Positions 46,525 to 51,990 of a DNA stretch of 64,000 bases are shown piece by piece; the first letter of the stretch is position 1, and every line of letters starts with the position of its first letter. A program made the translations under genes and the position numbers. The DNA is from Clostridia bacterium (lineage in GTDB: Bacteria; Bacillota; Clostridia; TANB77; CAG-508), in assembly GCA_016290095.1 (NCBI GenBank), contig JAEESU010000010.1, forward strand, positions 155,286-219,285. The letters run 5' to 3'. The notes under the pieces were generated by a model. It saw nothing but the letters and a program-made list of their open reading frames with translations. It was not told where the DNA came from and ran no database searches.

Positions 46525-48037
46525 GTGAAAAGATTGAAAAATATATTACAATACTTAGAGTTGACCGCTGAAAAAAATAAAGGTAAAATTGCGATAATAG
46601 AAGAAGAGAAAAAAATTAGTTTTGATGAACTTTTAATAAGCAGTAAAAAAGCAGGAAGTTTGCTTTGTAAATATATTAAACCACAAGATTCAGTAGGAGT
46701 GTTTATGGAAAAAGGAATAGACAGTCTTATTTCTTTTTTCCGGAACAGTGTATGCTGGAGGTTTCTATGTTTATTTAAATCCAGATTTGCCAGCATCAAG
46801 ATTACAAAAAATAATAAAAATTGCAAATATTAAAACAGTTATGGCAAATGATAATAGCTTTGAAATTGCAAGTCAGTTATCAAGTGATGTTAGGGTATTA
46901 AAAATAGATAGCATAAGTAATGAAAGCATTGATGAAACAAGACTTTTGACGATAAGAAAGAAAGCATTAGATGTTCATCCACTTTATGCAAATTTTACAT
47001 CTGGTTCAACTGGCGAGCCTAAAGGAGTTCTTGTATCACATCGATCTGTAATAGATTTTATAGATATATTTGATGAACAATTTTCGATAACAAAAGAAGA
47101 TATAATAGCAAATCAAGCACCTTTTGATTTTGATGTTTCTGTGAAAGATATTTATTCTTTTATAAAAACAGGTGCAACTCTTCTTATAGTTCCAAAGAAG
47201 TTGTTTTCTTCACCAGCAAAGTTATTAGATTATTTATGTGATAATAATGCAACAACATTAATTTGGGCTGTATCTGCACTTTGTTTAATAACAACATTTC
47301 ATGGATTAGATTATAAAGTACCAGAAAAAGTAGATAAAATATTATTTAGTGGAGAAGTAATGCCACTTAAACATATTAAGCAATGGGTGGAACACCTTCC
47401 AGATGCAATATTTGTAAACTTATATGGCCCAACAGAAATCACGTGTAATTGTACATATCATGTACTTGACAAAAGCTTAAATTATGAAAAACAAATACCA
47501 ATCGGAAAACCTTTTGATAATGAAGAAGTATTTTTGCTAGATGATAATAATAATCTAATAACAGTAGAAGAAAAAGTGGGAGAAATCTGTGTAAAAGGAA
47601 CAGCACTTTCTTTAGGATATTATAATAATCAAGAACAAACAAATAAGTACTTCATGCAAAATCCATTAAATGACAAATACATTGACATGATATATAAAAC
47701 AGGTGATTTGGGTTATATTGGAAAAGATGGTGAGTTTTATTTTTCTGGAAGAAAAGATTTCCAAATTAAACATATGGGACATCGTATAGAACTAGAAGAA
47801 ATTGAACTAGAGATAAACAAAGAAGAAAAAATAGAAAGAGCATGTTGTGTTTATGATAGTGAAAAAAGCAGATTATATGGATTCTATATTGGAAAAATAG
47901 AACCAAAAGAATTACATGAAAAATTAAAAGCAAAGTTACCAGTATTTATGATACCAAATTCACTAAAACAAATAGATGAATTTCCATTAAATAAAAATGG
48001 AAAGATAAATAGAAAAGAGTTATTACTTAGAAAGTAA
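46525..48037 (+). pseudogene. DltA-like D-alanine--carrier-protein ligase (adenylation enzyme) with a +1 frameshift in a T6 run
   Basis: ORFs 46525-46833 and 46748-48037 are collinear with B. subtilis DltA ('...MIVSFLGSVKAGHPYIPVD' vs '...SLISFF|GTVYAGGFYVYLNPD') and carry 'FTSGSTGEPKGVLVSH'. The frames join if one T is removed from tttttt at 46733-46738. The start may be the TTG at 46534. Confidence 0.65.
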
Positions 48038-48048
48038 GGAGCGACAAT

Positions 48049-49200
48049 ATGGATGAAAACATATTAAGAAAAATAATTCAAAATTATGAGACACCAACGT
48101 ATATTTTTGATATTTCTATATTAAAAGAAAGAATAGAATATTTAAGAACAGCCCTTCCAGAGAAAGTAAAGTTTTGTTATGCAATAAAAGCAAATCCGTT
48201 TTTAGTAAAAGAATTAGAAGAGGTTGTAGATAGATTTGAAGTATGTTCTCCAGGAGAATATCAAATATGCAGAAAGAGAAAAATAGATATAAAAAAAATA
48301 TTGATATCAGGAGTATATAAAACACCTGAATTAATAATGGATATGGTAAAAGATGATGAAATAGAAAATTTTACAATAGAGTCTATGCAGCAATTCCAGT
48401 TATTAAAATATATTAATCGAAAATTAAAAGTACTTATAAGAATAACAAGTGGAAATCAATTTGGAATTAATAGTGAAGAAGCAGAAGAGATTATAAAAAA
48501 TCGTAGTCAATATGAGAATTTAGATATAATTGGAATTCAATATTTTTCTGGAACACAGAAAAAGTCAATAAAGAATTTAGAAAAAGAATTAACATATGTT
48601 CAAGAACTTATAAATAAATTTAAAAATGAATATGATTTTGAAACAAGAGAATTAGAATTTGGACCAGGATTTCCAGTTTCTTATTTTCAAAATGAAGAAT
48701 TTGACGAAGAAATATTTTTTAAAGAGTTTTCAGAGCTAATAAATCAAATGGAATTTAAAGGACAAATTATATTAGAATTTGGAAGATCTATGGTTGCAAG
48801 CTGTGGAAGTTATATAACAAAGGTAGTTGACAAGAAAGTAAATAAAGGTCAAAATTATGCAATATTAGATGGAGGAATTCATCAATTAGTATATTATGGA
48901 CAATCTATGGCAATGAAAATACCAATGTGTGAGATTTATCCTAAAAGAGAAAATGTAAATGAAAAATGGAATTTATGTGGATCATTATGCACAATAAATG
49001 ACATATTAGTAAAACAGTTCCCAGCTGGAAATTTACAAATAGGAGATATACTCATTTTTAAGAATACTGGTGCTTATTGTATGACAGAAGGAATTGCATT
49101 ATTCTTAAGCAGAGATTTGCCAAGCGTCTTAAAAATAAAAGAAAATGGCGAAATAGAATTATTAAGAGACAATTTACCAACATATAAATTTAATTATTAA
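48049..49200 (+). CDS. Fold-type-III PLP-dependent decarboxylase (Orn/DAP/Arg decarboxylase family-2-like)
   Basis: 'YAIKANP' carries the PLP-lysine signature of the diaminopimelate/ornithine decarboxylase family. Starts 11 nt after the dltA-like stop. The protein is 383 aa. Confidence 0.6.
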   Translation: MDENILRKIIQNYETPTYIFDISILKERIEYLRTALPEKVKFCYAIKANPFLVKELEEVVDRFEVCSPGEYQICRKRKIDIKKILISGVYKTPELIMDMVKDDEIENFTIESMQQFQLLKYINRKLKVLIRITSGNQFGINSEEAEEIIKNRSQYENLDIIGIQYFSGTQKKSIKNLEKELTYVQELINKFKNEYDFETRELEFGPGFPVSYFQNEEFDEEIFFKEFSELINQMEFKGQIILEFGRSMVASCGSYITKVVDKKVNKGQNYAILDGGIHQLVYYGQSMAMKIPMCEIYPKRENVNEKWNLCGSLCTINDILVKQFPAGNLQIGDILIFKNTGAYCMTEGIALFLSRDLPSVLKIKENGEIELLRDNLPTYKFNY

Positions 49201-51027: not shown

Positions 51028-51042
51028 AGGAAGGAAAAAGGG

Positions 51043-51990
51043 ATGAAGAAATTAATCTTAAGATTTATAATTTTTATATTAATACTTTTCATAATTCTTT
51101 TAATTTTGTCACGCATTTTGCTTCCAAAAAATAATACGGATGAAGCCGGAATGAATAATAGCAGAGCTATGAAGATATTAGGAGAAGAATCTGGTACTGT
51201 AGATATGATTGTATATGGAGATAGTGAAGCATATGCATCAATTATTCCATTACAACTATGGAATGATTATGGATATACATCTTTTGTATGTGCAACATCA
51301 GGGCAAACACTTCCAGACTCATGTAGAATAGCATATGATACTTTAAAGAATCAGAATCCTAAAATTGTTATATTAGAAGCAGATACAATTTATTTGAGTT
51401 CAGAAATTTCTGTTCCAGTCTCAAGAGTTTTATATGAAATTCTACCAATAATGGAATATCATAATAGATGGAAAAGCTTAAGCTTAAATGACTTTATTGG
51501 AAAAATAGAACATACAGGAAGAGATTCTAATAAAGGATATTATTATTTATCAAAAGAAGAACCAGCAGATGATAGCAGATATATGGAAGAATCTGATGAA
51601 ATAGAAAGAATACCACGACTAAATAAAGTCTATGTAAAATTATTAAAGAATTATTGTGAGTTAAAAGGGGCAGAATTTGCAATAGTAAGTGTACCAAGCG
51701 TTAATAACTGGAATTATAAAAGACATAACGCTTTAAAACAATTTGCAGAAGAAGAGGGAATAGAATTTATAGATTTAAATGAAAAGAAAGATGAAATACA
51801 AATAGATTGGTCTAAAGAAACAGCAGATAAAGGAGATCATGTGAATTATCCAGGAGCTAAAAAAGTAACAAAGTATTTAGGTGAGTGGTTAAACAAAAAG
51901 AACATTTTAGAAAATCATAAAGAAGATATAAATTATAACTTTTGGAAAGAAGACTTAAACATTATTATTTCAACAGGAAATTATTATTAA
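51043..51990 (+). CDS. DltD/AlgX-like SGNH-type membrane-anchored protein
   Basis: N-terminal TM, a 'VYGDSEA' (GDS block I) motif, and 'DKGDHVNYPG' (D..H block V-like). Confidence 0.5.
   Translation: MKKLILRFIIFILILFIILLILSRILLPKNNTDEAGMNNSRAMKILGEESGTVDMIVYGDSEAYASIIPLQLWNDYGYTSFVCATSGQTLPDSCRIAYDTLKNQNPKIVILEADTIYLSSEISVPVSRVLYEILPIMEYHNRWKSLSLNDFIGKIEHTGRDSNKGYYYLSKEEPADDSRYMEESDEIERIPRLNKVYVKLLKNYCELKGAEFAIVSVPSVNNWNYKRHNALKQFAEEEGIEFIDLNEKKDEIQIDWSKETADKGDHVNYPGAKKVTKYLGEWLNKKNILENHKEDINYNFWKEDLNIIISTGNYY

Follow-up and report, generated by a model that had tools for sequence, protein, structure and literature searches.

What does an operon that resembles the machinery for teichoic-acid D-alanylation (Dlt) do with an amino acid decarboxylase in its middle? 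The question is raised by positions 46525–51990 of a 64,000-nucleotide stretch of DNA from a Clostridia bacterium (assembly GCA_016290095.1, contig JAEESU010000010.1, positions 155,286 to 219,285 of the forward strand), which is called the window here. Five open reading frames (ORFs) follow one another on the + strand of this locus, with gaps of 11, 11, 1 and 15 nt between them, and encode a ligase, a pyridoxal phosphate (PLP)-dependent decarboxylase, a carrier protein, a membrane-bound O-acyltransferase (MBOAT) as well as an SGNH-fold protein. The original prediction for this DNA had described five packed genes, and all five ORFs are found at the positions it gave. With moderate confidence, they can be read as a self-contained, horizontally movable operon (the cassette) that loads an acidic amino acid onto the carrier, decarboxylates it while it is bound there, and aminoacylates an extracytoplasmic polymer of the cell envelope with the product.

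The first gene (46525–48037, + strand) encodes a stand-alone ligase of the ANL family that resembles DltA and the adenylation (A) domains of nonribosomal peptide synthetases (NRPSs). In the window, the gene is split into two ORFs (46525–46833 and 46748–48037) by a +1 frameshift at TTTTTTCC (46733–46740, + strand), where there is one base too many compared with intact orthologs. The frameshift, which had already been pointed out, is present in the window sequence and absent from 31 orthologs; it cuts off the first ~70 residues of the ligase, and the other four genes of the cassette are intact. The 31 intact orthologs read ..FFG(T/I)VYAGGFY.. across the break, so that the window has one extra base, a C or a T. 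Removal of one base restores a protein of about 500 amino acids (aa) with which the orthologs align end to end, and its start is probably the TTG at 46534, behind the ribosome-binding site GAGGTG. Both Pfam and NCBIfam identify the ligase as an AMP-binding or amino-acid adenylation enzyme, and the repaired protein scores 306.8 bits against TIGR01733 (amino-acid adenylation). Against the DltA equivalog TIGR01734 it scores 272.4 bits, far from the cut-off of 559.85, and by that measure is not DltA. Scores against PDB entries are alike for GrsA (1amu, an NRPS A domain; 214 bits) and DltA (3fcc; 196 bits).

What this ligase activates can be approached through the ten positions of its specificity pocket, which read DVKSLSLCNK. 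Across 32 sequences (the window ligase and its 31 orthologs, which are 52–66% identical to it), eight of the ten positions are invariant and the other two vary conservatively. Nearly the same code occurs in distant ligases (39–44% identical) whose genes, each with a carrier and a decarboxylase gene but no MBOAT gene beside it, are found amid genes for glycosyltransferases. As judged from the pocket, Asp235 indicates that the substrate would be an amino acid, and Lys239 argues for an anionic group on it, which would favor an acidic amino acid. In the Stachelhaus codes, Glu-activating domains read DAKDLGVVDK, and Lys239 is a Glu-type signature. A ligase for a dicarboxylic amino acid would therefore fit a pathway that loads first and decarboxylates afterwards, and not the direct activation of β-alanine, γ-aminobutyrate (GABA), lysine or D-alanine. 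The order of events originally proposed, in which the acid is loaded first and then decarboxylated while tethered, is thus one with which the invariant Lys239 appears to agree. For D-alanine in particular, the Lys239 code argues against it as the substrate of the ligase, although it does not prove the point.

The second gene (48049–49200, + strand; 383 aa) encodes the enzyme that sets the cassette apart. It carries the Pfam domains PF02784 (Orn_Arg_deC_N) and PF00278 (Orn_DAP_Arg_deC) and the motif YAIKANP, which confirms the fold-type-III PLP enzyme of the ornithine/diaminopimelate (DAP) decarboxylase type that had been predicted. Its family is large, with 304 clusters at 50% identity (E ≤ 1e-30). 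The best-scoring named family is TIGR03099 (169.7 bits; cut-off 478), followed by the equivalog TIGR01048 for the DAP decarboxylase LysA (167.5 bits; cut-off 297.9), and because both scores fall below the cut-offs the enzyme is a member of neither. In the PDB, it matches Aquifex LysA (2p3e, E = 9e-33) and BtrK (E = 6e-29), the PLP decarboxylase of butirosin biosynthesis.

The motifs discriminate between these two relatives. In the alignment, the window enzyme has FSGTQ, the BtrK-type (F/Y)(S/T)GTQ, in place of HIGSQ of LysA, DGGIH as a case of the BtrK-type DGG(I/M)H, and LCT in place of ICE of LysA. Its C-terminal motif also departs from LysA, with HQLVYYGQ replacing the RPxxY region as it does in BtrK. 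The enzyme therefore lacks the Arg of RPxxY, the His of HIGSQ and the Glu of the CE(S/T)GD motif, the last being replaced by LCT(I)ND. In LysA, two of these residues, the RPxxY Arg and the CE Glu, hold the far end of DAP. Conversely, AIKAN, E(F/L)GR, LC(T) with the catalytic Cys, and GAY are all kept. The enzyme is not housekeeping LysA, an identity that would have spoken against the original prediction: its score is below the LysA cut-off, the DAP-binding residues are absent and the motifs are those of BtrK. On this comparison, it is predicted to be a decarboxylase of the BtrK/CtaF kind, acting on an aminoacyl group tethered to a carrier.

A candidate for that carrier is encoded by the third gene (49212–49442, + strand; 76 aa). 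The protein matches PF00550 (PP-binding) with 24.5 bits, and its attachment site for phosphopantetheine is Ser31 in YLDSLA, within a conserved L-D-S-L; the match and the motif bear out the earlier assignment as a phosphopantetheine carrier with an LDSL site. Its scores for DltC are below the cut-offs of both families (18.7 bits for TIGR01688, cut-off 52.35; 32.1 for NF003464, cut-off 68), and its PDB matches (E ~1e-4) are aminoacyl and peptidyl carrier proteins as well as DltC.

The last two genes would move the acyl group across the membrane. The MBOAT (49444–51027, + strand; 527 aa) belongs to PF03062 and scores 158.7 bits against the DltB family TIGR04091, whose cut-off is 375. In the PDB, its sequence relatives are limited to the DltB entries 6bug and 8jem (E ~9e-26), and its WTRWH and GLWHG align with the catalytic His motifs of DltB, both His residues being conserved. 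The original label of a DltB/AlgI-like MBOAT has to be corrected in one respect: the architecture is that of PatA and AlgI, with a fused acyl-shuttle motif, and not that of DltB plus DltX. The acyl-shuttle motif FXYXXF has a microprotein of its own, DltX, in the Dlt pathway; PatA, AlgI and MBOATs related to them carry it fused to their own C-terminus, on two additional helices (PMC12148441). PatA acylates the Tyr of its own motif, from which the SGNH protein PatB takes the acyl group, and DltB does the same through DltX (PMC12148441). In the cassette, the C-terminal residues of the MBOAT are P-[IM]-Y-A-x-F in 28 of 28 orthologs, with a Pro in place of the first Phe of FXYXXF; the window protein has PIYANF, and the C-terminus of NgPatA is FIYANF (PMC12148441). 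Two additional C-terminal hydrophobic segments or transmembrane helices (451–482 and 492–523), absent from DltB, precede the motif. Among the ORFs of the window, there is no small ORF upstream of the operon that could be a separate DltX microprotein; the operon has no dltX because the shuttle motif is fused to the MBOAT at its C-terminal end.

The fifth protein (51043–51990, + strand; 315 aa), for which an AlphaFold model was built from an 81-sequence alignment, has an SGNH fold, an N-terminal membrane anchor, and a Ser and a His that are invariant among orthologs. A profile search against PDB sequences gave no match for it even at E ≤ 10, and it does not match the Pfam family of DltD (PF04914). 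It is predicted to be an extracytoplasmic protein of the acyltransferase/esterase fold that passes the acyl group on to an acceptor polymer. All sequence features expected of an acyl-export pair (the His motifs, the Tyr motif and the anchored SGNH protein) are thus present, which is consistent with the MBOAT–SGNH export function first suggested for these genes.

The five genes also stay together in other genomes. A scan for relatives of the decarboxylase with one genome per species yielded 30 loci, to which three metagenomic loci (L001, L037 and L038) were added. The order ligase–decarboxylase–carrier–MBOAT–SGNH recurs in 34 independent loci, in each as far as the length of the contig allows, at a decarboxylase identity of 47–67% (L001–L031, L037 and L038). 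A comparison of gene order in related Clostridia had been proposed as a check on the original prediction; the order is conserved, and a coincidental juxtaposition is not borne out. The hosts include Clostridia known from metagenome-assembled genomes, Lachnospiraceae, Oscillospiraceae/Ruminococcaceae, Eubacterium and Faecalibacterium, as well as Traorella massiliensis, other Erysipelotrichaceae and an organism of the ‘Mycoplasma sp. CAG:776’ type, and the samples, as far as titles and isolate names tell, include material from sheep, goats, chickens and the Hadza (human). The cassette is common in gut and rumen Firmicutes. At one locus (L002), a fusion of ligase and decarboxylase was considered and rejected, given a stop codon between the two genes.

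Genes that flank the cassette vary from locus to locus. In about 12 of 31 loci, plus L037 and L038, a response regulator of the OmpR type and a HisKA kinase are encoded directly upstream; loci in which the pair precedes the ligase gene include L010, L017, L021, L024–L026, L028, L037 and L038. A phosphopantetheinyl transferase of the ACPS type is encoded directly downstream of the cassette in L037. The window has neither two-component genes upstream of its cassette nor a phosphopantetheinyl transferase gene beside it.

A stand-alone carrier and an ATP-dependent ligase adjoin the decarboxylase in the window, in the cassette loci, and also in the distant loci L032, L033, L035 and L036, which depart from the five-gene order. 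In L032 (4931–8071), a distant relative of the decarboxylase (P0254, 43% identity) forms a fusion with Ig-like surface domains and with a transglutaminase-like core, and its gene is followed by one for an adenylation enzyme with the pocket DAKSSVLGVK and by a 76-aa ORF. Here the tethered chemistry may serve another output, or the gene may have been called wrongly. The other three loci have genes for ligase, carrier and decarboxylase but none for an MBOAT or SGNH protein. The three genes stand alone in L033 (1523–4532), where the ligase lacks the pocket Asp (IARTVSQGSK); they lie among genes for a pyruvyl transferase, methyltransferases and a radical SAM protein in L035 (6214–9188), and beside those for two GT2 glycosyltransferases in L036 (106–3197). 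The ligases of L035 and L036 keep the code DVKS.S.CNK.

That the cassette behaves as an accessory block can be seen from close relatives that lack it at exactly this site. Two such loci are L039, with flanks 84–86% identical to the window at the DNA level, and L040 (77–80%); in both, the order is ClpX, pseudouridine synthase, the gene that follows the cassette in the window, and the HHH-protein. Positions 46451–52095 of the window correspond to ~110 nt in L039. On either side of the cassette lies one copy of a 27-nt direct repeat (family D6); the left copy (CATGCAACAAGCAATTAACTGTTTTTT; 46439–46465, + strand) and the right copy (51996–52022, + strand) are 81% identical and spaced 5557 nt apart, and the sequence is single-copy in the cassette-less L039 and L040. 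Since the cassette is missing from these two loci and the repeat is single-copy there, the cassette was either acquired in the window or lost from the relatives in one piece. The genes around it are housekeeping genes, those upstream for phosphofructokinase, trigger factor, C1 peptidase, ClpP, ClpX and pseudouridine synthase, and those downstream for an HHH-domain protein, SpoIIM and an XerD-like protein. A promoter-like site 5′ of the ligase gene (46470–46498, + strand; TTTACA-17-TATTCT with a TG before the −10) was found by consensus scan alone, with 9/12 matches.

Taken together, the components suggest the following pathway, each step of which rests on conserved linkage, motifs and precedent. 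The ligase would activate an amino acid with a second carboxylate and join it through a thioester to the phosphopantetheine arm that the 76-aa carrier bears; the leading guess for the substrate is Asp or Glu, bound via the side-chain carboxyl. Following the precedent of its family, the BtrK-like PLP enzyme would then remove the free α-carboxyl on the carrier to give β-alanyl- or γ-aminobutyryl-S-carrier. At the membrane, the conserved motifs of the MBOAT suggest that a conserved His moves the acyl group to the protein's own Tyr524 in P-x-Y-A-x-F, at the outer face, from where the SGNH protein would take it on Ser61 and esterify an acceptor, which may be teichoic acid or another glycopolymer. 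The likely outcome would be a cationic ω-amino ester on the cell surface, a modification that a neighboring two-component system would often control.

Several observations weigh against this pathway. The most serious concerns the ligase: known Glu domains pair Lys239 with activation of the α-carboxyl, the Lys holding the side chain. Activation in that mode would leave nothing for an α-decarboxylase to act on, which is a real weakness. The code DVKSLSLCNK as a whole has no verified match among known specificity codes. By score, the decarboxylase is about equally near to Aquifex LysA (117 bits) and BtrK (104 bits). Teichoic-acid genes are not consistently linked to the cassette. Finally, the +1 frameshift in the ligase gene means that the copy in the window is inactive or mis-sequenced: the extra base is a sequencing error, or else a recent mutation has inactivated this accessory island.

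Four other explanations have to be set against the proposed pathway. The one that survives best, although it is unlikely, is that the substrate of the PLP enzyme is a free amino acid, with Asp converted to β-alanine or Glu to GABA, for example, and that the ligase activates the product. Most members of the Orn/DAP/Arg decarboxylase family do use free substrates. However, the ligase pocket, with its invariant Lys, is suited to a substrate of negative charge and not to β-alanine or GABA, and both BtrK, a relative with close motifs, and CtaF, an analogue, act on tethered substrates only. The position of the decarboxylase gene points the same way, as it lies between the ligase and carrier genes in 30/34 cassette loci, the contigs of the other four ending early.

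Improbable as well, and next in rank, is a pathway in which meso-DAP is loaded by one of its α-carboxyls and loses the distal carboxyl on the carrier, so that lysyl-S-carrier is formed and the surface polymer is lysylated. LysA is among the best PDB and NCBIfam matches of the decarboxylase, Lys239 of the ligase could hold the distal carboxylate of DAP, and the residues that bind the distal end in LysA would be expected to be lost if that end were the thioester. Against this, the motifs of the decarboxylase are not those of LysA but those of BtrK, whose substrate is γ-Glu bound to its acyl carrier protein (γ-Glu-S-ACP). All characterized tethered cases use Asp or Glu, and a polymer could be lysylated more simply by direct activation of lysine.

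A divergent form of ordinary D-alanylation is very unlikely. The PLP enzyme would then provide D-Ala, as a racemase or epimerase, or epimerize a tethered residue, and it does match the alanine racemase N-domain weakly; DltA, DltB and DltC are also the nearest named families for three of the other proteins. These proteins nonetheless score far below the cut-offs of the Dlt equivalogs (272 vs 560, 159 vs 375 and 19 vs 52), and the PLP enzyme has the C-terminal domain of a decarboxylase, the motifs of BtrK and the conserved Cys. The ligase pocket carries Lys239, a position that is presumably occupied by a hydrophobic residue in DltA. When a second dlt-like set was sought within the 64-kb window, just an unrelated ANL enzyme (17272–18795; 21% identical) was found. 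Least probable of all is a thiotemplated pathway that places the aminoacyl group on a secreted metabolite or a membrane lipid, for even though all characterized sets of ligase, carrier and decarboxylase belong to secondary metabolism and one variant (L032) fuses the decarboxylase to a transglutaminase-like domain, no polyketide synthase (PKS), NRPS or tailoring genes are linked to the cassette in the loci examined, variants with no more than the ligase, carrier and decarboxylase genes lie amid genes for glycosyltransferases, and the known bacterial MBOAT–SGNH pairs all acylate extracytoplasmic polymers (PMC12148441).

If tethered decarboxylation followed by export is indeed what the cassette carries out, its significance would extend beyond this genome. 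Both resistance to cationic antimicrobial peptides and the way in which the host senses Gram-positive bacteria are determined in large part by the D-alanylation of teichoic acids. The cassette would give abundant gut commensals a parallel system for attaching a different aminoacyl group, one that is derived by decarboxylation. This new surface chemistry would probably alter charge, the stability of the ester and recognition by the immune system. The cassette would add a third kind of donor logic to MBOAT–SGNH systems and a new cationic surface modification with dedicated two-component regulation. Carrier-tethered PLP decarboxylation, otherwise known only from antibiotic pathways, would serve the biogenesis of the cell envelope, and a function would be provided for three families that are un- or mis-annotated: the ‘hypothetical’ SGNH protein, the LysA/TIGR03099-like decarboxylase and the DltA-like ligase.

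Outside the cassette, the window holds several other features. The average G+C content of the genome is ~26%, whereas the region directly 3′ of the operon (52045–52745), with an ORF at 52114–52692 (+ strand), has 52% G+C and a G+C fraction at third codon positions (GC3) of 0.70. The ORF has a promoter-like site of its own (52014–52042), whose −35 is overlapped by the right copy of the 27-nt repeat, and a terminator with a strong hairpin and a T-run. Its product is a hydrophobic, His-rich protein of 192 aa with no Pfam family and 12 homologs only. The region has long ORFs on both strands and an RNA fold z-score of −4.7. A structured RNA was considered here and rejected: there is no Rfam match, and the substitutions relative to L039 are 31/21/102 by codon position. 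As the substitutions concentrate at third codon positions, 52114–52692 is a protein gene.

A second G+C-rich single gene (~44%; 56591–57403), with its own AT-rich promoter and a terminator, encodes a secreted protein of 270 aa with a bacterial SH3_3 domain. The G+C content is raised in a third place as well (~41%; 16087–17142), where two small ORFs of 161 and 186 aa lie side by side; they look like paralogs by eye and are followed by the gene for the unrelated ANL-family ligase (17272–18795). The window also encodes a papain-family (C1) cysteine protease of 835 aa (40895–43402) with a signal peptide, an acidic linker of Pro/Asp-rich repeats and a C-terminal sortase-type anchor, LPNTG.

How the cassette relates to known systems depends on which of its parts is compared. 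Literature searches of incomplete coverage found no description of the cassette and none of β-alanyl or GABA esters on teichoic acids; to this extent, the original view that the system is undescribed stands. The coupling of tethered decarboxylation to MBOAT–SGNH export appears to be an undescribed combination of known modules. A fuller claim is more tentative and falls a little short of probable: that the cassette is an undescribed hybrid machine, wide in gut and rumen Firmicutes, which converts tethered Asp or Glu to β-alanyl or GABA esters on a surface glycopolymer by means of a PatA-type MBOAT and a new SGNH family.

A ligase–decarboxylase pair at surface-polysaccharide loci is known from TIGR03098/TIGR03099, two uncharacterized, exosortase A-associated families of an acyl-CoA ligase and a PLP decarboxylase, whose accessions are not mentioned in the literature searched. 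Those families differ from the cassette in their exosortase context, as none of the loci examined here has an exosortase and the cassette has no PEP-CTERM genes nearby, and the cassette proteins score well below them (187.4 vs 592 for the ligase and 169.7 vs 478 for the decarboxylase).

Closer in chemistry are the sets that decarboxylate an amino acid on a carrier. Butirosin was the one precedent known to the original prediction, a list that has to be widened: tethered decarboxylation is carried out by BtrJ/I/K in butirosin biosynthesis, by CtaD/E/F in that of closthioamide in a Clostridium, and by VinN/L/O and FlvN/L/O in those of macrolactams (PMC11284099, PMC11350588, PMC7183216). The tethered substrates are Glu, Asp and 3-methyl-Asp, with attachment through the side-chain carboxyl described for Btr, Cta and Flv, and the PLP decarboxylase takes the α-carboxyl to give GABA-, β-alanyl- or 3-aminoisobutyryl-S-carrier (PMC11284099, PMC11350588, PMC7183216). 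CtaF, a member of the Orn/DAP/Arg family, is inactive on free aspartate (PMC11284099, PMC11350588, PMC7183216). For BtrK, CtaF, VinO and FlvO alike, Asp or Glu is a substrate solely in its tethered form. The cassette shares with all four sets an ATP-dependent ligase, a stand-alone carrier and a PLP decarboxylase. BtrK belongs to the same Pfam family as the window enzyme and has its diagnostic motifs in common with it. BtrJ and CtaD are ATP-grasp ligases, whereas VinN and FlvN are adenylation enzymes (PMC11284099, PMC11350588, PMC7183216) and thus of the same class as the cassette ligase. Unlike the cassette, the four sets feed cytoplasmic antibiotic assembly lines, and none of them is coupled to MBOAT–SGNH export.

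On the export side, the cassette is related to Dlt (DltX-A-B-C-D) in that its adenylation enzyme would load a small carrier on which a DltB-related MBOAT would draw, with the same catalytic His motifs, an acyl-Tyr shuttle motif and a membrane-anchored finisher of the SGNH fold. The label ‘dlt-type’ originally given to the operon is therefore right for the kinds of component but not for membership of Dlt, since none of the four proteins reaches the cut-offs of DltA, DltB or DltC or matches the Pfam family of DltD. The two systems also differ in the shuttle, which is the separate DltX in Dlt and is fused to the MBOAT in the cassette. It is PatA/PatB that shares with the cassette an MBOAT with a C-terminal shuttle fused on two extra helices and an SGNH partner. 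PatA/PatB and the AlgI- and WssH-type systems, however, take acetyl from acetyl-CoA and have no carrier, ligase or decarboxylase, whereas the donor in the cassette is predicted to be an aminoacyl-carrier, because ligase and carrier are encoded together with the export pair. MBOAT–SGNH systems other than Dlt have no carrier protein (PMC12148441). On these sequence comparisons, the cassette would be the exception among them, combining an architecture of the PatA type with a carrier donor of the Dlt type.

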